Below, in pieces: positions 2,848 through 18,215 of a stretch of DNA of 20,000 bases (position 1 is the first letter of the stretch; each line of letters begins with the position of its first letter). The DNA comes from an uncultured virus (IMG/VR IMGVR_UViG_3300020042_009962) (Duplodnaviria; Heunggongvirae; Uroviricota; Caudoviricetes). Under the pieces are notes generated by a model. It was not told the origin of the DNA, made no database searches, and saw only the letters and a program-made list of their open reading frames with translations. Position numbers and translations under genes: made by a program. The stretch lies in IMG/VR virus record IMGVR_UViG_3300020042_009962; one strand, written 5' to 3'.

Positions 2848-3201
2848 ATGAAGCTACTACAACTATTAAAAGAAGCAAAAGAGGTATTAGAAGACTTCGC
2901 TAAAACCAGAGGAGAAGGTGCAGCTAAAATAGCATCAAATGCTCAAGAAAAAGGAGGACTTGCTTTACTAACCTGGCATCATTTTAAAGTAAAAGCTCCG
3001 TATTATAAAAAAGCTTCTGAAGGAAAGCTTGACATGGAACAAGCAAAGAAAGAGTTTGAAGAGACCTATAAAAAGATCTCTCTAGATATGTCTCAAATTG
3101 AATTTCAAAGAGAGGTAGGAAGACTGGAAGTATTAGGAGAATTGTTAATAAAGAAGAATAATGTCAACACTAAATACATCCATACCCCATTTCTATGCTA
3201 A
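2848..3201 (+). CDS. Hypothetical protein, putative internal head protein
   Basis: Starts MKLLQLLKEA; tightly packed behind the preceding gene. Confidence 0.7.
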   Translation: MKLLQLLKEAKEVLEDFAKTRGEGAAKIASNAQEKGGLALLTWHHFKVKAPYYKKASEGKLDMEQAKKEFEETYKKISLDMSQIEFQREVGRLEVLGELLIKKNNVNTKYIHTPFLC

Positions 3202-3805
3202 GATGAGAATAGAACATCTCTACCAGCATGACGGGAGAGAAGGTATGCAAGATGTAATAGTATTTGGAGCACAATCTGTAGGAGGAAGAGCTCTTACCTT
3301 CCATATAATGACTGATGAAGGAGCTGTTAGATCAAGAGTTCCAATTCATATGCTTGCTTGGAAAGATGATGCACCAAAAATGGCTTTAGACCATTTACAA
3401 TTATGGGATTGTTTTGGACATGAAGTATCATGCACAGTTTACGATTATTTACTCCAATCAAGAGTAAAAGCAATATTTAAAGACGGAAGTAAAGAGTGGG
3501 GTAACTATATCATGACCTTTGATTGGTATAATAATCCATATTCTAACGAACCAACACAATATAAAGCAGCACATCTAATTAAATTAGATAACGGAAACTT
3601 TACTCTTCAACCTAATAATAGATTAATGTGGAGAGATATGTCTTTTGTAACTCAACCATTCCCTGAAAAACCGGATTGGATGATTGATAATAAAGAATGG
3701 TTCTGCGAATCAGTTTCCGATAAATGGACAATGGAAAAAGGTAATGAAAATATTTACTACTACACTTTAGAAAATGAAAAAAAGTCAGATAAGAGAAATA
3801 GTTAA
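3161..3805 (+). CDS. Hypothetical phage protein (aromatic-rich, globular)
   Basis: 214-aa ORF with motifs LQLWDCF and QPNNR; resembles an uncharacterised family I recall from aquatic phages; function unknown. Confidence 0.7.
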   Translation: MSTLNTSIPHFYAKMRIEHLYQHDGREGMQDVIVFGAQSVGGRALTFHIMTDEGAVRSRVPIHMLAWKDDAPKMALDHLQLWDCFGHEVSCTVYDYLLQSRVKAIFKDGSKEWGNYIMTFDWYNNPYSNEPTQYKAAHLIKLDNGNFTLQPNNRLMWRDMSFVTQPFPEKPDWMIDNKEWFCESVSDKWTMEKGNENIYYYTLENEKKSDKRNS

Positions 3806-6960: not shown

Positions 6961-8178
6961 ATGGCAGATAATTTTAACTTAAGAACATTCTTAACAGAGA
7001 ATAAACTTACAAAGAACGCACAAATCCTTAAAGAAGAAATTTCTTTTAACGGAAAACCAGTAAACGTTGGATCAGTTGAGATCGACGGAATAGATACAGA
7101 AGACTACCCAGACTTCGTAGATGCATACATTGCAGCAGCAGAGTATGAAGACGGTACTCCATTAACAGATGAAGAGTTGGTAGATTTTCAAGAAGAAAAT
7201 TACGACTTAGTAAGTCAAATGATTCACGACAATCAACTGTACTTACAGGAAAAGAAAGAAGATGGTATGGAAGAAGCATCTAGCGGGGATATGGCTTATA
7301 CTGAGAAAGTTAAAGAAACTTTAGAGGAAAGTAGATTAACTGCTAAAGAAAGAAGACTTGTTGAGATGGTACAAGATGCTTTAGGTATAGCACCACAGGC
7401 TGTAACAGAAGAAGAAGAGGGTAATACTTTCTATAGAACAGGTGAAGATGACCAAATACCAAACCCACCAGCAGAACTACACATTCCAAAAGAATTGACA
7501 TCTGAAGAAGAGATGGTTCAAGACAAACCTCTTCCAAAATATGAATCAATTGAAGAATTGATGAAAGAGATTGAACACGGAACAAACGAAGCAGCTCATA
7601 AATATAAAATGGATGAGATGAAAAGAGTTTACGAGGCTTTAGAGGCTAAAGTAGGATCTTTAGAAGAAGGAGAGCATGCAGAGCATATCGATCAAAAAGC
7701 TGTTAAGCAAATGCGTAAAGATATTGCAGCATTAAGAAAAGCAGAAGAGAAGTTACGAAAAGAATTTGATAAAAAATTCACAGGTAAAGAAAAAAAGGAA
7801 GCTCCTAAAAAAGAAAAAGAAACAGTAACTTTAGCAGAAAACACAAACACAATGGAAAATTTTAATTTAAAAAAGTTCTTGACAGAGAACAAATTGACTA
7901 CCAACTCTAGAATGTTAAATGAAGAGTTAAAATTTATAGATGCGACTGATCCGGCAAGAAACAAAGGAGGTGACCAACACCTAAAACTTTCAGACTTAGT
8001 ACCAGGAAAAACAGTAATTGCACTTAATAAACATTACAGTAATAAAGCTGAATTAGAAGATGAAGCAGGAACCTTTATAGAAGTAGACGAAAACGATTAC
8101 ATACGTTGGAAAACTAAAGACGGTAAAGAGAAAGTATGGAGATATATTGAGGATATAGCAATAATTAAAAACTTCTAA
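6961..8178 (+). CDS. Acidic coiled-coil mosaic protein with a duplicated leader; possible internal start at 7852
   Basis: MADNFNLRTFLTENKLT at the N-terminus recurs as MENFNLKKFLTENKLT at codon 298; also an EIDGIDTEDYPDFVDAYI module and a long charged helix. Confidence 0.7.
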   Translation: MADNFNLRTFLTENKLTKNAQILKEEISFNGKPVNVGSVEIDGIDTEDYPDFVDAYIAAAEYEDGTPLTDEELVDFQEENYDLVSQMIHDNQLYLQEKKEDGMEEASSGDMAYTEKVKETLEESRLTAKERRLVEMVQDALGIAPQAVTEEEEGNTFYRTGEDDQIPNPPAELHIPKELTSEEEMVQDKPLPKYESIEELMKEIEHGTNEAAHKYKMDEMKRVYEALEAKVGSLEEGEHAEHIDQKAVKQMRKDIAALRKAEEKLRKEFDKKFTGKEKKEAPKKEKETVTLAENTNTMENFNLKKFLTENKLTTNSRMLNEELKFIDATDPARNKGGDQHLKLSDLVPGKTVIALNKHYSNKAELEDEAGTFIEVDENDYIRWKTKDGKEKVWRYIEDIAIIKNF

Positions 8179-8249: not shown

Positions 8250-9824
8250 ATGTCACAACAAGATATTAAACAAATAGTAGCACAGGAGTATGTAAAGTGT
8301 GCAAAAGATCCTGCATACTTCATGAAGAAGTATTGCTACATTCAACATCCAACTAGAGGTAGAATCTTATTCAACCTATACCCATTCCAAGAAGGAGTAT
8401 TACATTTATTCAGAGATGAAAAGATGTTAATAACTCTAAAATCAAGACAGTTAGGAATATCTACATTAGCCTCAGCATATGCTCTATGGTTAATGATCTT
8501 CCATAAAGATAAAAACGTACTAGCACTTGCAATTACCCAAGCAACAGCTAGAAACCTTGTAACTAAAACGATTTTCATGTATGAGAATCTGCCAAAATGG
8601 TTACAACTACCTTTTACAGAGAAGAATAAATTATCTTTAAGACTTAAAAACGGTTCTAAAATAACAGCTAAATCATCTAATGCAGATGCAGCTCGTTCTG
8701 AAGCGGTATCATTATTATTAATAGATGAGGCAGCTTTTATCGATAACATTGAAGAAACCTTTACTGCAGCTCAACAAACTCTTGCTACCGGAGGTCAATG
8801 TATGGCCCTATCTACTCCAAATGGTGTAGGAAACTGGTTCCATAAAACATGGGAAAAAGCAGAAGCAGGAGAGAATGGATTTGTACCTGTTAAACTAAAA
8901 TGGGATGTGCATCCTGAGAGAGCTCAAGACTGGAGAGATGAACAATCAAGGCAGTTAGGAGAGAAAATGGCAGCACAGGAATGTGACTGTGACTTTCTAT
9001 CATCTGGAGATTCAGTAATTGAGGTTGAAAATATGGCTTTTTACGAAGAGACATATGTAAAAGAACCAATGGAAAAGAGAGGTGTAGATGGAAATCTTTG
9101 GATATGGGAATCACCTGACTATCAAAAATCTTATATGGTTGTAGCCGATGTCGCTAGAGGAGACTCTACTGACTACTCTGGCTTCCATGTCTTTGATATT
9201 GAAAGCTGTACCCAAGTAGCAGAATATAAAGGAAAGATATCTCCTAAAGAATACGGAAACGTATTGGTAGGAATAGCTACAGAGTACTGCGATGCACTTC
9301 TAGTAGTAGAGAATGCCAATATTGGATGGTCAACCATTGAACAAATACTATCCAGAGAATATAAAAACCTGTACTATTCATCAAGATCAGATAATGAGAC
9401 AGTTGAATCATATATGGCCAAATATGAAAGAGATAAATTAGTACCAGGATTTACAATGTCTCTTAAGACAAGACCATTAGTTATCGCTAAGATGACTGAG
9501 TACATACGTGAAAGATCGGTTATAGTGCAGTCTAAGAGATTGTTAGCTGAAATGAGAGTATTCATATGGAGAAATGGTAAAGCACAGGCACAGTCAGGGT
9601 ATAATGATGATTTAATTATGGCTTTTGCTACAGCTTTGTATGTTAGAGATACAGCTATCCGTATGAGACAACAAGGAATGGATCTTTCAAGAGCTACAAT
9701 GAATGCTTTTGTTGGATTGAATCAAAGAGACTCTGGCGTATATAATGTTGCTCCTATGCGTAATAATCCTTATCTTATGGAGACGCCGCATGGTCAAGAG
9801 GACTTAACCTGGCTATTAGGATAA
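8250..9824 (+). CDS. terL: Terminase large subunit (T4 gp17-like)
   Basis: Walker A KSRQLGIST, Walker B LLLIDEAAF, coupling motif STPNG, and RNase H-like nuclease acidic residues VADVARG...DYS...NDDLIMAFA. Confidence 0.96.
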   Translation: MSQQDIKQIVAQEYVKCAKDPAYFMKKYCYIQHPTRGRILFNLYPFQEGVLHLFRDEKMLITLKSRQLGISTLASAYALWLMIFHKDKNVLALAITQATARNLVTKTIFMYENLPKWLQLPFTEKNKLSLRLKNGSKITAKSSNADAARSEAVSLLLIDEAAFIDNIEETFTAAQQTLATGGQCMALSTPNGVGNWFHKTWEKAEAGENGFVPVKLKWDVHPERAQDWRDEQSRQLGEKMAAQECDCDFLSSGDSVIEVENMAFYEETYVKEPMEKRGVDGNLWIWESPDYQKSYMVVADVARGDSTDYSGFHVFDIESCTQVAEYKGKISPKEYGNVLVGIATEYCDALLVVENANIGWSTIEQILSREYKNLYYSSRSDNETVESYMAKYERDKLVPGFTMSLKTRPLVIAKMTEYIRERSVIVQSKRLLAEMRVFIWRNGKAQAQSGYNDDLIMAFATALYVRDTAIRMRQQGMDLSRATMNAFVGLNQRDSGVYNVAPMRNNPYLMETPHGQEDLTWLLG

Positions 9825-9854: not shown

Positions 9855-11708
9855 ATGGCAGAAAGAAATTTATTTAACTCACTTCAGAGGTTATTCTCAA
9901 CTGATATATTAGTTAGAAACATAGGAGGGGACGAGTTAAAGATTGCTGATATTAATCACATTCAATCAACAGGGAAGTATCAAACCAATTCGCTATTGGA
10001 TAGATTCTCTCGTCTTTATATTTACAATAATAAGAATATCTTTAACCCAAACCTTAATTACCAGACATTAAGGATACAACTATACTCAGATTATGAAGCA
10101 ATGGATTCCGATCCACTTATTGCTTCTACTTTAGATATACTAGCAGATGAGTCTACGCTGAAGAGTGCAATGGGAGAGGTTCTTTCAATTAAATCTACAG
10201 ATGAAAATATACAAAGAGTCCTTTATAATCTATACTACGATGTATTAAATATCGAATTTAACCTATGGTCATGGGTTAGAAATATGTGTAAGTACGGAGA
10301 CTTCTTTTTAAAATTAGAGATATCAGAAAAATTTGGAGTTTATAATGTTCTTCCTTATACAGTTTACCATATGGTACGACATGAGGGGATGGATAAAGAA
10401 GATCCAACCAAAGTAACATTCTCAATCGATCCAGACGGATTAGCTTCTTCATCAGATCCAAACTATATTCCAAATAATAGTAAATCAGTTATCGCTTTAG
10501 ATAATTACGAAGTAGCTCATTTCAGATTACTATCAGATACAAACTACCTTCCTTATGGTAGAGCTTATATTGAACCAGCTAGAAAAATTTACAAGCAATT
10601 GACTTTAATGGAGGATGCAATGTTGATTCACAGAATCATGAGAGCTCCTGAGAAGAGAATGTTCTATATTAACGTAGGATCTATTCCACCTAATGAAGTT
10701 GAGCAGTTCATGCAAAAAACAATCAACAATATTAAGAAAACTCCTTATGTAGATCCACAAACAGGTCAATATAACTTGAAATTCAACATGCAGAACATGA
10801 TGGAGGATTTCTACTTACCAGTTAGAGGAGGAGATACATCTACAAGAATTGAGACTACTAAAGGATTAGAGTATGATGGTACAAACGATATCGAATACTT
10901 AAGAGATAAAATGTTTGCTGCATTAAAAGTGCCTAAAGCATATTTTGGATTTGAAAAAGACCTTACAGGTAAAGCAACTCTTGCAGCAGAAGATATTCGT
11001 TTTGCTAGAACAGTAGAAAGAATTCAAAGAATTGTAGAAAGTGAATTAACTAAAATTGGTTTAGTACATCTATATTCACAAGGATTCGATAAAGAGTCTT
11101 TAGTAAACTTTGAAATTAAATTAACTACTCCTTCTATCATTTATGAACAAGAAAAAGTAGCACTTTGGAAAGAAAAAATTGACTTAGCAACTCAAATGCA
11201 AGCAACTAAATTATTCTCTTCAGATTACATCTACGATATGCTATTTGATATCTCAGAAGATAAGTATAACGAAATGAGAGAACTTATTAGAGAAGATGCT
11301 AAAAGAGAATTTAGAATATCTCAAATTGAAAACGAAGGAAACGATCCAGTAGCAACAGGACAATCTTTTGGAACACCTCACGATTTAGCTTCAATCTACG
11401 GAAGAGAGCAAGGTGAATTACCGGCAGGGTATGATGAAACCAAACCTGGAAGACCTAGAGAGAAAATGTCTATACTAGGTACAAATGCAGACCCTGTAGG
11501 AGGAAGAGATAGATTAGGAGTTCAAGGAATGAAAGGCGGCTTTCCAAGTGATAATGAAAATGTAAAAGAAAACATAAACAATACAATGTCAGTTTTTCTT
11601 AGAAACAAAAATATATTTATTCCTAAAAAGCAAAATATCTTTGAAGAAGAAGCAGAGAAAGAATCGGATCTCTTAAATGAAGAGAATATTAAAGATTTAG
11701 ATAATTAA
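9855..11708 (+). CDS. gp20: Portal protein (T4 gp20-like)
   Basis: LMEDAMLIHRIMRAPEKRMFYINVG, MMEDFYLPVRGG and DIEYLRDKMFAALKVPK are gp20-family signatures; follows terL. Confidence 0.93.
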   Translation: MAERNLFNSLQRLFSTDILVRNIGGDELKIADINHIQSTGKYQTNSLLDRFSRLYIYNNKNIFNPNLNYQTLRIQLYSDYEAMDSDPLIASTLDILADESTLKSAMGEVLSIKSTDENIQRVLYNLYYDVLNIEFNLWSWVRNMCKYGDFFLKLEISEKFGVYNVLPYTVYHMVRHEGMDKEDPTKVTFSIDPDGLASSSDPNYIPNNSKSVIALDNYEVAHFRLLSDTNYLPYGRAYIEPARKIYKQLTLMEDAMLIHRIMRAPEKRMFYINVGSIPPNEVEQFMQKTINNIKKTPYVDPQTGQYNLKFNMQNMMEDFYLPVRGGDTSTRIETTKGLEYDGTNDIEYLRDKMFAALKVPKAYFGFEKDLTGKATLAAEDIRFARTVERIQRIVESELTKIGLVHLYSQGFDKESLVNFEIKLTTPSIIYEQEKVALWKEKIDLATQMQATKLFSSDYIYDMLFDISEDKYNEMRELIREDAKREFRISQIENEGNDPVATGQSFGTPHDLASIYGREQGELPAGYDETKPGRPREKMSILGTNADPVGGRDRLGVQGMKGGFPSDNENVKENINNTMSVFLRNKNIFIPKKQNIFEEEAEKESDLLNEENIKDLDN

Positions 11709-12811: not shown

Positions 12812-13765
12812 ATGAGAACTTTACAAGAAAAATATAACGGAATTCAAGAGGGAAAATTCTCTAAAGAACATTTCTTAGCTGAAGCTAGAATGCAACTTCC
12901 AAACCTAATAACTCGTTTCAACGGGTACGATGATGCTGTTCAGATTTTAAAGAACAGGGGAATGATTCAAGAAGCTAGAGTAGAAGAAGCTAGGCTTACT
13001 AAAAACAATCTAACAGATTACAGATATAAACCAACCAACGAAATGGATAAGTATCCATACGAACAAATTCTTAGAGGAATTAGAGTTGAGTTAGAGGTAG
13101 CAGGAGTTTTTGGAACACCAACAGCAGAAGAATATGCAAAAGCATTAGCAAAAGTATCTAAAAACTTAGCAAAAGACTCAATCTTCTATACTAATCAATT
13201 AGCAGGAGTTAATCCAAAAGTAGACTTACACGACAAAATGGTTCCTGTAACAGCAAAAAATTCTGTTGACACTTTTAACGGTATGAAAAAAGCTGAACTA
13301 AAAGAAGGATTTAAAAAACTTATCAAAAAAGTATTATCTGAAGAGAAAATTGAGGTTGAAGACTACAACGGTGACGATGAGTTTGAAATGTACGGAGATG
13401 ATGAAGCAGATGATATTCCACATCCAAGAGGGTATGAAGACCAAGACGAAATCGACTACGATGATGAAAACTTCTCAGATCCTTTTATTGATGGAGATTT
13501 AGAAGAAGCCACAGATACAGAAGCTGATAAAGCTATGGTTCGTAAATTAATGACAATGTACGAAACGGAACCTTCTAAATTTGAAAGATTACATAAACAA
13601 GCTCAAACACAAGCATCTACTTCTGAGGATATTAAATTTAAACATTTATTATCTCTAATTGATAGAGCAAAAGCAGGAGCTTTACAGAGTTTATCAAATC
13701 AAGATAAACGTCAAGCTGATAGCGAAGGAATAGATGAAACAGTATCCTTAACAGATCTAATATAA
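12812..13765 (+). CDS. Acidic hypothetical protein (possible prohead core or internal protein) with a degenerate DUF5661-like segment
   Basis: RGIRVELE...KNLAKDSIFYT resembles the 3774 module; D/E-rich tract; stop overlaps the protease start (TAATG). Confidence 0.65.
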   Translation: MRTLQEKYNGIQEGKFSKEHFLAEARMQLPNLITRFNGYDDAVQILKNRGMIQEARVEEARLTKNNLTDYRYKPTNEMDKYPYEQILRGIRVELEVAGVFGTPTAEEYAKALAKVSKNLAKDSIFYTNQLAGVNPKVDLHDKMVPVTAKNSVDTFNGMKKAELKEGFKKLIKKVLSEEKIEVEDYNGDDEFEMYGDDEADDIPHPRGYEDQDEIDYDDENFSDPFIDGDLEEATDTEADKAMVRKLMTMYETEPSKFERLHKQAQTQASTSEDIKFKHLLSLIDRAKAGALQSLSNQDKRQADSEGIDETVSLTDLI

Positions 13766-14346
13766 TGAACAATCCACTATTAATAAATGTAACTCCTTTC
13801 AAAGGACTTCTTACCGAATCAAAAACCAGACCAGGGATCTTTGAGGTAACAGGTATTATGCAAAGAGCAGGAGCAAAGAATCAAAACGGAAGAATCTACA
13901 AAAGAGAAATACTTGAGGAAGAAGTAAAAAACTATGTAGAGAATTTTGTTAAAGTTGGAAATGCTTACGGAGAATTGGATCATCCAGAATCAGCAATTGT
14001 ATCTTTAAAAAATGCATCACATGTTGTAAAGGAATTATGGTGGGATGGAGATGATTTAATGGGTAAAGTAGAATTATTAAACACACCTTCAGGAAATATC
14101 GTAAAAGAAATCTTAAAAGGAGGACATACAATAGGAATATCTTCAAGAGGAACAGGATCAGTATCTCAAACAAATGAAGGAACTTTAATGGTTCAACCAG
14201 ACTTTGAATTAGTATGCTGGGATTTTGTTTCTAATCCTTCTACACAAGGAGCATTTATGAATCCAATCTCTTTAAACGAAGGAAAACAAGCAGCAGGAAA
14301 ATATGATAGATTAGATTCTATTATTAACAATATATTAAGAGCATAA
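13765..14346 (+). CDS. gp21: Prohead maturation protease (T4 gp21-like)
   Basis: NQNGRIY, GELDHP (catalytic His), GISSRGTG (catalytic Ser) and WDFVSNPST. Confidence 0.95.
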   Translation: MNNPLLINVTPFKGLLTESKTRPGIFEVTGIMQRAGAKNQNGRIYKREILEEEVKNYVENFVKVGNAYGELDHPESAIVSLKNASHVVKELWWDGDDLMGKVELLNTPSGNIVKEILKGGHTIGISSRGTGSVSQTNEGTLMVQPDFELVCWDFVSNPSTQGAFMNPISLNEGKQAAGKYDRLDSIINNILRA

Positions 14347-14746: not shown

Positions 14747-16201
14747 ATGTCAAACAAAGATTTATTAAAGCAAGCTATTGCTGAAGCGAAAACTATTCGT
14801 GAAGCTGCAATTGCTAACGCTAAAGAAGCTTTAGAAGAAACATTAACTCCACACCTAAAAGAAATGCTTGCTCAAAAATTGCAAGAAATGGAAGATAAGG
14901 AAGATGAGGAAATGACAGAAGAAACAATCAACAACCCAGAAACAGAAACTGCACACGGTAACGTAGCAGAAGCTGAAGAAGAGGAAGAAGAGGAAAACGA
15001 AGAAGAAGCTGGCGAAGAAGAAGGTAACGAAGAAGAAGGAGAAGAGGAAGAAGTAGAAATCGAAGACATGTCTATCGAGGACTTAAAAGATCTTATCCGT
15101 GATATCGTTTCACAAGAAGTAGGTCATGACGAATCAGAAGAAGAATTACCAGGTGAAGAAGCTCCAGAAGCAGACATGGTAAGCATGGACGGTGATTCAG
15201 AAGAAATCGACATTAACGAACTATTAGCAGAGTTAAACGAAATGGACAAAGAAGAGGTTAAAGAAGGTGAATTAAACGAATTATCACCAGAGTACATCGC
15301 AGGAGCAGCACAGCTTGTTGAAATGTTTCCATTCTTAACCATGTCAAGCGCATCATTAGTTATAGGAGCTTTAGGATCAGTAGGTCTTATAGGATTTTCT
15401 GCAATTGTTTCTAAAGTACAAGATATGGCTCTAGCAGGAAAATTTGGAGCGGCAGGTAAATCTTTTGCTGAAAAATTACAAGCAGCCGGAGGAGCAGCAG
15501 CAGCAGCAACTCAACATCGTCAAAGAGAAGGAGTTGAAGAAAGTATGAAAGATAAGAAAGGTATGGAAGAGATGAGTCATGAGTCAGATAAAATAGATGA
15601 AAACATCGATATTATCTACCAACTTGTTGATGCTTTCCCATTCTTAACTCGTTCTACAGCAGAATTATTAGTTGGTACTTTAGGAGCAGTAGGTCTTACA
15701 GGATTATCGGTTATTATGGCTAAAGTACACCAAATGGCTAAAGACGGAGTTTTTGGTGAAAAAGGAAAACAAATCGGAGATAAATTAACCGATATAGGTA
15801 GTGCAGCAGCTTCTGCAAGAAACGTATCTGAAGAGTCTGAAGAATTAAACGAAGCTTTAAAGACAGTTAAAATCTTAAGAAACCAACTTCAAGAAGTTAA
15901 TCTTCTAAATGCAAAATTACTTTATGTAAATAAAGTATTCAAATCAACTAACTTATCTGAAGGTCAAAAAGTAAATGTTATCGCAGCATTTGATAAAGCC
16001 GAAACAGTTAAAGAAGTAAAATTAGTTTTCGAAACAGTTTCTAAAAATGTAGTTGCTAAACCAGCCGCATTAAAAGAGCATAGATCTTTTGCTTCTAAAG
16101 CAACAGGTAACGCACAAACAACTGCACCAAAACAGATCTTATCTGAAGTAGATGAGCAAGTTCAAAGATGGCAGAAGTTAGCAGGAATTATTAAATCATA
16201 A
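14747..16201 (+). CDS. Prohead scaffolding/core protein (gp22 position) with a hydrophobic tandem-repeat insert
   Basis: Between protease and MCP; very acidic with poly-E tracts and coiled-coil N- and C-terminal regions; C-terminus RWQKLAGIIKS. Confidence 0.75.
   Translation: MSNKDLLKQAIAEAKTIREAAIANAKEALEETLTPHLKEMLAQKLQEMEDKEDEEMTEETINNPETETAHGNVAEAEEEEEEENEEEAGEEEGNEEEGEEEEVEIEDMSIEDLKDLIRDIVSQEVGHDESEEELPGEEAPEADMVSMDGDSEEIDINELLAELNEMDKEEVKEGELNELSPEYIAGAAQLVEMFPFLTMSSASLVIGALGSVGLIGFSAIVSKVQDMALAGKFGAAGKSFAEKLQAAGGAAAAATQHRQREGVEESMKDKKGMEEMSHESDKIDENIDIIYQLVDAFPFLTRSTAELLVGTLGAVGLTGLSVIMAKVHQMAKDGVFGEKGKQIGDKLTDIGSAAASARNVSEESEELNEALKTVKILRNQLQEVNLLNAKLLYVNKVFKSTNLSEGQKVNVIAAFDKAETVKEVKLVFETVSKNVVAKPAALKEHRSFASKATGNAQTTAPKQILSEVDEQVQRWQKLAGIIKS
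15311..15817 (+). repeat. Intragenic duplication of a 66-codon hydrophobic unit (15311-15508 and 15620-15817)
   Basis: QLVEMFPFLT...GGAAAAA versus QLVDAFPFLT...GSAAASA; 36/66 identical residues, ungapped, by manual alignment. Confidence 0.9.
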
Positions 16202-16224: not shown

Positions 16225-17856
16225 ATGGAATTAAATCAATTATTCGAAGGTTCAAATAATTACAAGTCATTACAAGCAGATGCTGCTCGTTTGTCTGGTA
16301 AATGGGCCAAATCAGGTTTGTTAGAAGGAATTTCTAACGAAATCGAAAGAAACAACATGGCTATGATTCTTGAGAATCAAGCAAAACAAATCGTATCTGA
16401 AAATACTACAGGTACAGGTGCAATAGGTACTTCTACAGGTGGTGCTGAACAATGGGCTGGAGTAGCTTTACCATTAGTACGTAAAGTATTCGCTCAAATC
16501 GCAGCTAAAGACTTCGTTTCTGTACAACCAATGAACCTACCTTCAGGACTTGTATTTTACTTAGACTTTAAATACGGAACAAACGCAGTAGGAAGAGCAG
16601 ACGGAGATAGCCTTTACGGTAATGTATCTGATGCTAATAACAAACTAGCAGTTGACGAAGAAGTAAACGGAGGTTTATACGGTGCAGGTCAATTTGGATA
16701 CTCAATCAACTCTGCTTCTTATGCAGGTACATTGACTACTTCAGGATCAGCTATATCTTCTTCAATCGGATACAACGACGGTCTTGCAACAGGAGATTTC
16801 TTTACACTTGCAGTAGCAACAAGTTCATTAGCAGGGTTTGACTCTAAAGGTGTTAGAGCTTTCAGATTATATTCAGCTTCTGTTAACGTAACTACTAACC
16901 CAGAATTTACATTCTTATCTTCTTCAGCAGCAGGTGAATTTGTTAAGTTCGTAGTAGCAAAAGCAGGTGATACAGCTAATGGAATTGTAGCAGTAACTAC
17001 AGGTTCATTTACAGCAGGTGTTAAATACCAAATGCAACCAACTGACAGATCAAGAGGTGACTTCGAAGACGGAGGAACTAACCCAGCAGGAAACAACAAC
17101 GGAGAAATTAAAATTCCTGAAATCAACGTATCACTTGCTTCTGAAGCAATCGTTGCTAAAACAAGAAAATTAAAAGCACAATGGACTCCAGAGTTCGCAC
17201 AAGATTTGAATGCTTATCATTCAATTGATGCTGAAGCAGAATTAACTTCATTATTATCTGAATACATCTCTATGGAGATTGACTTAGAATTAATGGATAT
17301 GTTGATCCAAGATGCAGCTACAACTGAAAGATGGTCAGCAGTTAACAACAAAAACTGGACAGGAACAGCTTGGTCTAATGCAACTTCAGATTTCTACAAC
17401 ACTCAAGGTCAATGGTTCGGAACTTTAGGTACTAAAGTACAAAAAGTATCTAACAAAATTCACCAAAAAACTTTAAGAGGTGGAGCTAACTTCTTAGTAT
17501 GTTCTCCTTCTGTAGCTACAATCTTAGAATCAATTCCAGGATATGCAGCAGATACAAATGGTGATAAAATGGACTTTGCAATGGGAGTTCAGAAAGTAGG
17601 TAACTTGAATTCTCGTTTCAGAGTTTACAAAAACCCTTACATGACTGAAAACGTAATCTTAATGGGTTACAGAGGATCTCAATTCTTGGAAACTGGTGCA
17701 GTTTATGCTCCATATATTCCATTAATCATGACTCCATTAGTGTACAATCCAACTACCTTTACACCAGTAAAAGGTATCATGACTCGTTACGCTAAGAAAA
17801 TGATCAGACCAGAATTTTACGGTAAAATCTTCGTTAGTGACGTTGCTTCTATCTAA
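16225..17856 (+). CDS. gp23: Major capsid protein (T4 gp23-like)
   Basis: VSVQPMNLPSGLVFYLDF, TRKLKAQWTPEFAQDLNAYHSIDAEAELT, YAPYIPL and GIMTRY. Confidence 0.97.
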   Translation: MELNQLFEGSNNYKSLQADAARLSGKWAKSGLLEGISNEIERNNMAMILENQAKQIVSENTTGTGAIGTSTGGAEQWAGVALPLVRKVFAQIAAKDFVSVQPMNLPSGLVFYLDFKYGTNAVGRADGDSLYGNVSDANNKLAVDEEVNGGLYGAGQFGYSINSASYAGTLTTSGSAISSSIGYNDGLATGDFFTLAVATSSLAGFDSKGVRAFRLYSASVNVTTNPEFTFLSSSAAGEFVKFVVAKAGDTANGIVAVTTGSFTAGVKYQMQPTDRSRGDFEDGGTNPAGNNNGEIKIPEINVSLASEAIVAKTRKLKAQWTPEFAQDLNAYHSIDAEAELTSLLSEYISMEIDLELMDMLIQDAATTERWSAVNNKNWTGTAWSNATSDFYNTQGQWFGTLGTKVQKVSNKIHQKTLRGGANFLVCSPSVATILESIPGYAADTNGDKMDFAMGVQKVGNLNSRFRVYKNPYMTENVILMGYRGSQFLETGAVYAPYIPLIMTPLVYNPTTFTPVKGIMTRYAKKMIRPEFYGKIFVSDVASI

Positions 17857-17878: not shown

Positions 17879-17905
17879 AAAGAGAGCTTTTAGCTCTCTT
17901 TTTTT
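17879..17905 (+). terminator. Rho-independent terminator after the major capsid gene
   Basis: AAAGAGAGCT-TTT-AGCTCTCTTT plus T-run. Confidence 0.85.
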
Positions 17906-17923
17906 GTATAAGAAAGTTTTGTA

Positions 17924-17931
17924 TATTTATA
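17924..17931 (+). promoter_or_regulatory. TATTTATA putative late promoter motif
   Basis: Between the terminator and ATG 17943. Confidence 0.6.
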
Positions 17932-17942
17932 ATAAAAACGAC

Positions 17943-18215
17943 ATGAACCCATTAGACGACTTCAAACTACATACCGAGAGACTTGACTCACCGGGAGTAA
18001 GTGCAATAGCAATAACACCAAGTAACTCTGCCCTTTTAGATAAAGTTTCAAGAGCAATTTATGTTGGAGGATCAGGTAACCTTGCAGTAGAAATGCTAGG
18101 AGGACAGACTCCTATAGTATTTGTAGGAGTATCTGCAGGATGTATACTTCCAATTAGAGTAACTAAAGTACTATCTACATCTACAACTGCTACAAACTTA
18201 GTAGCACTTTACTAA
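17943..18215 (+). CDS. Head spike base protein, RcGTA Rcc01079-like
   Basis: 90 aa: SPG...AITPSNS...RAIYVGGSGNLAVEM...VFVGVSAGCILPIRVTKVLSTSTTATNLVALY matches the Rcc01079-family pattern I recall (ITP-x-D...R-x-LYVG-x-x-G...G-x-x-LP-x-R...GTTA-x-x-IVAL). Start moved from the track's TTG at 17904, which lies in the terminator, to ATG 17943. Confidence 0.8.
   Translation: MNPLDDFKLHTERLDSPGVSAIAITPSNSALLDKVSRAIYVGGSGNLAVEMLGGQTPIVFVGVSAGCILPIRVTKVLSTSTTATNLVALY

Follow-up and report, generated by a model that had tools for sequence, protein, structure and literature searches.

What does a pair of glycine-rich, hydrophobic segments do in the middle of an otherwise very acidic phage scaffold protein? 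The question is raised by P0001, a plus-strand gene within 20,000 nucleotides of DNA from an uncultured member of the Caudoviricetes (IMG/VR record IMGVR_UViG_3300020042_009962; this whole stretch is referred to as the window). The gene lies between a prohead protease and a gp23-type major capsid protein. Scaffolds are usually regarded as disposable assembly aids under purely structural constraint. The comparisons presented here suggest, with a probability that we place at roughly 40%, that this scaffold is a polyprotein carrier from which the protease would release cargo modules, a fused form of the internal-protein delivery of phage T4.

The gene and its parts are listed below in window coordinates. 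A slash in a motif marks the bond after a glutamate, aa stands for amino acids, pN/pS for the ratio of nonsynonymous to synonymous polymorphism, KD19 for Kyte-Doolittle hydropathy over 19 residues, AF2 for AlphaFold2 and pLDDT for its predicted local distance difference test score.

14747..16201, plus strand: scaffold-position gene P0001, 484 aa, stop codon included (open reading frame list and translation; S77 protease before it, gp23-type capsid gene after it)
14747..14881, plus strand: conserved N-terminal helix, aa 1-45, with LKQAIAE/A near the start, similar to the starts of T4 gp22 and IPIII; nearly invariant in alignment A1, pN/pS 0.08
14882..15280, plus strand: acidic region, aa 46-178, net charge -58, with conserved islands IEDMS.EDLKDLIRDIV and SEEIDINELLAEL
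15281..15541, plus strand: hydrophobic cassette unit 1, aa 179-265; four helices predicted by AF2, pLDDT about 60-70
15323..15412, plus strand: uncharged apolar stretch 1, aa 193-222, KD19 maximum 2.10
15542..15601, plus strand: charged inter-unit linker, aa 266-285, the least conserved part, pN/pS 0.59
15602..15832, plus strand: hydrophobic cassette unit 2, aa 286-362, with C-terminal end NVSE
15665..15721, plus strand: uncharged apolar stretch 2, aa 307-325, KD19 maximum 1.99
15833..16198, plus strand: conserved C-terminal scaffold domain, aa 363-484, pN/pS 0.21; 5347 proteins match it at E<=1e-5

The translation confirms that span 15281-15832 encodes residues 179-362 of P0001. The two units within it are clearly related, with 36 of 66 identical columns in a local alignment (Smith-Waterman score 173 versus 26.5 +/- 4.9 for 1000 shuffles, z=30), and carry net charges of 0 and -1, compared to -58 for the upstream residues 46-178. 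Two related units with Gly-rich apolar stretches in an acidic scaffold had been proposed from the sequence before this analysis (the original prediction), and both apolar strings are indeed present, LVIGALGSVGLIGFSAIV inside residues 204-222 and LLVGTLGAVGLTGLSVIM inside residues 307-325. They lie in uncharged runs of 30 (193-222) and 19 (307-325) residues, and the KD19 maxima of 2.10 and 1.99 both exceed the membrane threshold of 1.6. By this hydropathy heuristic alone, each unit contains an uncharged apolar segment that is long and hydrophobic enough for a bilayer, and P0001 is the only one of the 21 open reading frames (ORFs) of the window with two such peaks. A reading of the stretches as a GxxxG glycine zipper was rejected, because the glycines are spaced i,i+3 and no classical GxxxG zipper is formed. 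Across 25 aligned units, with identities down to 27%, the KD19 maximum is kept in every case (1.68-2.11); K45, G53, G56 and G70 are invariant, and P17, G32, G35, A50, F55 and L66 nearly so. The most strictly conserved residues belong to the amphipathic half of the unit (K..MA..G.FG.KG).

The nearest named phage is Flavobacterium phage vB_FspM_immuto (Immutovirus), with about 88% DNA identity in the flanks. Its homologue has aa 1-~170 and ~360-484 in common with P0001, and the middle consists of two copies of an unrelated, soluble, Lys-rich repeat. This protein (L001:4001-5242, MW353175) is deposited as 'DNA polymerase phi-like protein', a label that is probably an artefact of the long acidic stretch; judged by its position and homology, it is a scaffold. 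The homologues of Microcystis phage Mel-JY01 and of an uncultured phage of 484 kb are more distant. They retain only the N-terminal helix and ~120 residues at the C-terminus, on either side of a purely acidic middle, and their genes lie immediately 5' of the capsid gene.

Among 31 IMG/VR loci matched with P0001, the hydrophobic unit was found in 17 (two copies in 14, one in 2, and 1 cut by the contig end), while 11 contained three other kinds of cassette (5, 3 and 3 loci), 2 contained none and 1 had a broken frame. Since that search was partly seeded inside the unit, a second sample was drawn via the C-terminal domain alone. It comprised the best 120 of the 5347 matches, which are at least 81% identical in that domain, and 95 of these had a complete N-terminus. 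The 95 scaffolds have middles of 57-244 aa that contain no unit (54 proteins), one unit (15) or two units (26). At least eight further, unrelated cassette kinds occur in this sample, mostly Lys-rich and helical-looking, set apart by (M)EEG-type linkers; many form tandem pairs and one a triplet. The ratio of Lys to Arg over the 95 middles is 1336:218. When identity was computed over 45 N-terminal and 55 C-terminal residues, 1700 of the 3376 pairs that are at least 97% identical in these conserved ends differed in the presence of the unit. A quick maximum-likelihood tree of the flanks, in which 42 of the 96 tips have the unit, implies at least 21 changes in presence, against a mean of 31.4 and a minimum of 21 for shuffled labels, a count that is only a rough measure because the tree is poorly resolved.

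Variation of the insert in presence and copy number had been named beforehand as a check, and a universally conserved scaffold core as the alternative. The unit varies in presence, copy number and kind, so the middle is better described as an exchangeable slot, and the alternative fails. Judged from these alignments, the middle very probably represents an exchangeable array of autonomous cassettes. Within a head module that hardly varies elsewhere it is the most plastic part, and the cassettes display the diversity among close relatives that characterizes internal head proteins of the T4 type.

The unit is not restricted to scaffolds. When residues 179-362 were compared exhaustively with 1.84 billion representatives by phmmer, only 12 matches were returned, and a profile of 25 units matched 96 longer and 5 shorter proteins. 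In addition to scaffolds with one or two units and a partial sequence with three, these include proteins of 200-340 aa starting with MSNYSNFDLRKFLAE, in which several hydrophobic segments are strung between EEGVEE..LNE linkers; one of them, on a short contig, occupies the position of the scaffold, two genes 3' of an S77 protease. In P0104, which starts with MSDFDLRKFLAE, an A-like unit is linked to a second cassette (RPGY..KKAGKKVA..), and scaffolds of a sister lineage also contain the two together. The unit is present in one of 45 ORFs extracted from 48 loci of the MADNFNLR.FLTE family, whose member in the window is ORF 6961-8178, and in small proteins (97-172 aa) that combine the leader MKRYKIRKEQLERVVESFVME with one or two units, including one encoded next to a tail-sheath gene. 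These sequences indicate that the unit is autonomous and is also carried by other proteins encoded in phage structural modules. The idea of the scaffold as a payload carrier, put forward in the original prediction, is thus well supported by comparison, through both cassette exchange and the occurrence of the unit in other carriers.

Several observations concern these carriers and their surroundings. A 171-aa ORF (L146:1339-1854) between an S77 protease and a MSNYSNFDLRKF-type unit protein also contains two Gly-rich apolar segments, so the head module of that locus encodes several hydrophobic small proteins. A 172-aa protein consisting of the leader and two units (L148:5941-6459, also in L147) immediately follows a tail-sheath gene and a 236-aa ORF on a myovirus-like contig that has a ClpP-type head protease; the other neighbours of this P0012-like gene carry no annotation. 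The 97-aa form with one unit is P0199. Relatives of P0013, P0012 and P0091 were not found in viral contigs, and a single metagenome scan gave four loci. P0008 (234 aa) combines the N-terminal 92 residues of a PF25623-type marine scaffold with one unit and an unrelated tail. Its N-terminal part is identical in many of 60 IMG/VR loci, none of which has the unit; it is possibly a real transfer of a cassette between families or an assembly chimera, and was left out of the argument.

ORF 6961-8178 (plus strand, 405 aa), just upstream of the large terminase gene, belongs to a hypermodular family with 24 distinct sequences among the 45 extracted from the 48 loci. Its members share a conserved core (..LTAKERRLVEMV.., ..EHIDQKAVKQMRKDI..), and their inserts and C-terminal domains vary. 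The motif NF[ND]L[RK].FL.EN is found at the N-terminus (aa 5 in the window protein) and again before the C-terminal domain (about aa 300), or at the very C-terminus in relatives. The protein could be a small terminase, by its position, or a head-internal protein, by its leader.

The assignment of P0001 as a scaffold is based on the organization of the head module. On the plus strand, the genes run in the order large terminase, T4-like portal, three unannotated ORFs, S77 protease, a 79-aa ORF, P0001 and gp23-type capsid.

8250-9824, plus strand: large terminase
9855-11708, plus strand: T4-like portal
13765..14346, plus strand: prohead serine protease (Peptidase_S77), the presumed processing enzyme (PF03420, E=2.2e-34; phrog_207, E=1.1e-51)
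16225..17856, plus strand: gp23-type major capsid protein (PF07068, E=8.8e-81)
16390-16401, plus strand: predicted capsid maturation site IVSE59/, aligned with LTE65/ of T4 gp23; predicted propeptide of 59 residues

The T4 record gives the order 20-67-68-21-22-23. The window follows this order, which puts P0001 in the place of gene 22 (scaffold), and its position between protease and capsid within a portal-core-protease-scaffold-capsid module is that of the T4 gp22 family. The Glu of the capsid site IVSE59 is invariant in 5 of 5 sequences (alignment A3); T4 gp23 is cleaved after Glu65. By sequence, P0001 is not recognizable as belonging to the gp22 family (PF25623, T4_CASP): this profile gave no match to P0001 at E<=10, nor to its relatives P0002, P0072 and P0082 at E<=1, and the controls T4 gp22 and a marine T4-like scaffold were matched at E=6.8e-89 and 6.3e-59, respectively. 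An hhalign comparison of A1 with T4 gp22 gave a probability of 0.26%; a resemblance in the motif NL[ST]E.QK in that alignment is weak and not significant, and was discarded. Taken together, P0001 may, tentatively, be described as a carrier-built scaffold at the gene 22 position of an Immutovirus-like Flavobacterium myophage. Elsewhere in the window are a 5'-3' deoxyribonucleotidase (1291-1878; phrog_2643, PF06941), a protein of a PHROG 'ferredoxin' family (3161-3805; phrog_3704) and, directly 3' of the capsid gene, a 103-aa protein of a PHROG 'tail fiber protein' family (17904-18215).

The N-termini of several of these proteins resemble those of T4 proteins that are targeted to the head. According to the T4 record, the internal proteins IPII and IPIII start with MKTYQEFIAE/A and gp22 with MLKEQLIAE/A. 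The first ten residues of IPIII are its capsid targeting sequence (CTS), in which residues 4 and 7 serve targeting and residues 8 and 10 processing (PMC9026906). The leaders ..LRKFLAE and ..ESFVME of unit-bearing proteins have the phi-x-x-F-[ILV]-x-E shape of IPII and IPIII. F-[ILV]-x-E leaders are present on the unit-bearing proteins P0063, P0078, P0104, P0012 and P0199; the units of the window have no leader of their own. Two window ORFs, at 6961 (..LRTFLTE) and 12812 (..KEHFLAE/A), show the same shape, and P0001 itself (..LKQAIAE/A) shows only the looser form [FLA][ILV][ATM]E, with Ala replacing Phe. In the window, 4 of 21 ORFs have that looser form within their first 30 residues, where about 0.8 are expected; as the pattern is short and was defined after being seen, it provides a lead rather than a test. 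ORF 12812-13765 (plus strand, 317 aa), located before the protease, starts with MRTLQEKYNGIQEGKFSKEHFLAE/A, like T4 IPII and IPIII. Its immuto homologue has 360 aa, with an extra insert of ~58 residues near the N-terminus, so other proteins of the head module also vary by insertion.

The units had been proposed to be bounded by cleavage sites. The tripeptides LNE(178), VEE(265), IDE(285), VSE(362) and LNE(369) are present in P0001, and VSE/, with which unit 2 ends, also occurs in the capsid maturation site predicted for the same phage (IVSE/). These borders are not special, since P0001 contains 27 [LIVMF]-x-E sites among its 82 Glu, some of them inside the units, so that Glu sites at the borders are no more than expected by chance. 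Unit borders as evidence for protease sites were therefore rejected, x-x-E being too frequent. The peptide sizes of 77-87 aa that had been derived from them depend on sites no better than many others, including some within the units.

In T4, gp22 is present in 576 copies per head and is cut to short fragments that leave the prohead at maturation (PMC5694885). Should the same apply here, hundreds of hydrophobic peptides per head might exit into the producing cell and enter its inner membrane, with depolarisation, lysis timing or superinfection exclusion as the effect. The membrane-grade hydrophobicity of the units is consistent with such a role, and as long as they remain joined to the acidic carrier they would be inert. 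This explanation is improbable, given that no lysis genes adjoin P0001 in a Pfam and PHROGs scan of the window and that relatives without the unit would need another clock (none was searched for). Additionally, units of ~8 kDa may be too large to leave the shell, judging from T4 IPI*, which has 76 residues and stays in the head (PMC3012670).

Structure prediction of P0001 was of low confidence, with a mean pLDDT of 51.8 for the whole protein (16 sequences) and a pLDDT of 61.7 and predicted template modelling score of 0.33 for a single unit (25 sequences). All predicted structure is helical. Each unit is modelled as four helices, and the Gly cluster divides the apolar stretch into two of about 12-16 residues each. 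Neither Pfam nor PHROGs gave a match for P0001, and no Pfam family was above threshold for single units at E<=10. The rows for HrpB1_HrpK, DUF4244 and Bombinin are below the Pfam cut-offs and were treated as compositional. Sequence searches of the PDB returned 0 matches for the unit alignment A2 at E<=10 and for the scaffold alignment A1 at E<=1. Foldseek with the low-confidence single-unit model found nothing at E<=0.001, and the ESM Atlas gave no usable match.

Released units could also be soluble, folding perhaps as oligomers that bury the apolar helices, and be injected against a host factor (e.g. a defence system) in the manner of IPI*. Hypervariability among near-identical carriers parallels that of the T4 internal proteins (PMC3012670), most of the sister cassettes are soluble and Lys-rich, and conservation is strictest in the amphipathic half, K..MA..G.FG.KG. 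Soluble cargo is nonetheless quite unlikely in the case of this cassette: the uncharged run of 19-30 residues, with a KD19 of about 2, is conserved in 25 of 25 units, no compact fold is predicted, and no sequence or fold relatives were found.

The pooled pN/pS is 0.44 in both units, compared to 0.08 in the N-terminus, 0.21 in the C-terminus, 0.34 in the acidic region and 0.59 in the linker. The units are under purifying selection, which is looser than that of the scaffold ends. Such values would also be compatible with a function in assembly only, in which the middle is a tolerant spacer, the apolar helices aid self-sticking of the scaffold, everything is expelled or degraded, and the diversity reflects drift and recombination without function. 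This is rather doubtful, although a number of observations agree with it: the middle ranges from 57 to 244 aa and can be purely acidic, as in the sampled scaffolds and distant homologues described above, conserved x-x-E sites lie inside the units, AF2 gives no confident fold, and the fragments of T4 gp22 are short and exit the head (PMC5694885). A neutral spacer is not, however, expected to hold K45/G53/F55/G56/G70. Invariant residues and hydrophobicity are kept at 27-32% identity in proteins without the scaffold ends, tandem pairs and triplets of cassettes maintain the reading frame, and certain cassettes are shared by two carriers.

Several of the results weigh against reading the units as cargo. 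Their pN/pS exceeds that of the conserved ends and is near that of the acidic region, and neither the unit nor the whole of P0001 has a confident or compact predicted fold. They are neutral, unlike the basic T4 internal proteins; their glycines are spaced i,i+3, and their hydrophobicity is moderate. Glu sites are found throughout the protein, and two inside unit 1 (LVE192 and FAE242) are shared by 8 of 10 full-length relatives, so that the units could be cut to pieces and disappear like most fragments of T4 gp22. Finally, no virion data were found for unit-bearing phages, and the available part of PMC7077304 mentions neither mass spectrometry nor a scaffold.

If the scaffold is a polyprotein carrier, the conserved N-terminal helix and C-terminal domain would do the scaffolding, and the slot between them would accommodate self-contained cassettes of ~60-90 residues joined by Glu-rich linkers. 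The cargo here would be two copies of a four-helix module with a Gly/Ala-rich uncharged helix pair at its centre. Each scaffold copy would take two units into the prohead, where the S77 protease would cleave the linkers after Glu; the acidic pieces would leave the head, and the units, about the size of IPI*, would remain alongside the DNA and pass with it into the next host. Once there, and no longer attached to the acidic carrier, the apolar hairpin would partition into the cytoplasmic membrane. That the units are released and retained is a tentative proposal; that they act on the host membrane at infection is doubtful. Possible roles of the hairpin would then be to open or seal the inner membrane during DNA entry, to depolarise the cell or to weaken a membrane-based defence, and the phage would be a myovirus whose ejected membrane effector is stored in the capsid and not in the tail. 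In its most general form, which we consider unlikely, the scaffold of a widespread family of aquatic T4-type phages would be a programmable polyprotein whose recombination-prone slot delivers interchangeable cargo, in at least several hundred injected copies per head, with the cassette described here as a membrane-inserting hairpin. Were the cassettes cargo, the 5347 proteins with the carrier's C-terminal domain would represent a large unexplored reservoir of injected phage effectors, and cultured Flavobacterium phages with different cassettes would be a tractable system for the DNA-accompanying cargo of a contractile-tailed phage. If they are not, the family still shows the extent of insertion that a scaffold tolerates.

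Full-text searches, whose coverage leaves out most subscription journals, found no description of cassette arrays inside a scaffold. The original statement that there is no described precedent was too strong, given the T4 internal proteins with their CTS (PMC9026906, PMC3012670) and gp47 of the giant Salmonella phage SPN3US (PMC5694885). P0001 resembles T4 gp22 in its gene position, its acidic and (at low confidence) helical character, the N-terminal ..IAE/A motif and its presumed status as an S77 substrate; unlike P0001, T4 gp22 (269 aa) has no such hydrophobic unit. SPN3US gp47 is cleaved by a prohead protease of the T4 type, and a transmembrane helix is predicted in the mature part of this head protein (PMC5694885). 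It was inferred by its authors to be an ejection protein, with speculated contact to the host membrane, and is encoded at a highly diverged locus (PMC5694885). It differs from the P0001 unit in being a separate, large, low-copy protein with a long propeptide and no tandem scaffold module, and is likened to it by description only. The Dar proteins of phage P1 are further protease-processed internal head proteins (PMC12810830). Outside phages, precursors of the bombinin type (PF05298) also have tandem Gly-rich, apolar or amphipathic peptides between acidic spacers that are released by proteolysis. P0012, with two units, has a weak Bombinin match (E=0.014, 15.5 bits, under the Pfam cut-off of 21.4 bits), which is probably compositional; the likeness is an analogy of design only, with no evolutionary link.

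The closest known system by function is the delivery of the T4 internal proteins IPI, IPII and IPIII, small and highly diverse behind a conserved targeting sequence (PMC3012670), which are loaded in hundreds of copies through the scaffold core, freed after Glu by gp21 and injected with the DNA (PMC9026906; PMC3012670). The F-[ILV]-x-E starts of sister proteins that carry the unit are like those of IPII and IPIII. Unlike the T4 proteins, which are encoded by separate genes with a 10-residue CTS, the cargo of the window is embedded in tandem within the scaffold, and its units are neutral and apolar instead of basic; their loading, retention and injection are putative. If the units are cargo, P0001 would represent in nature what has been engineered in T4, where CTS and scaffold fusions are used for packaging.

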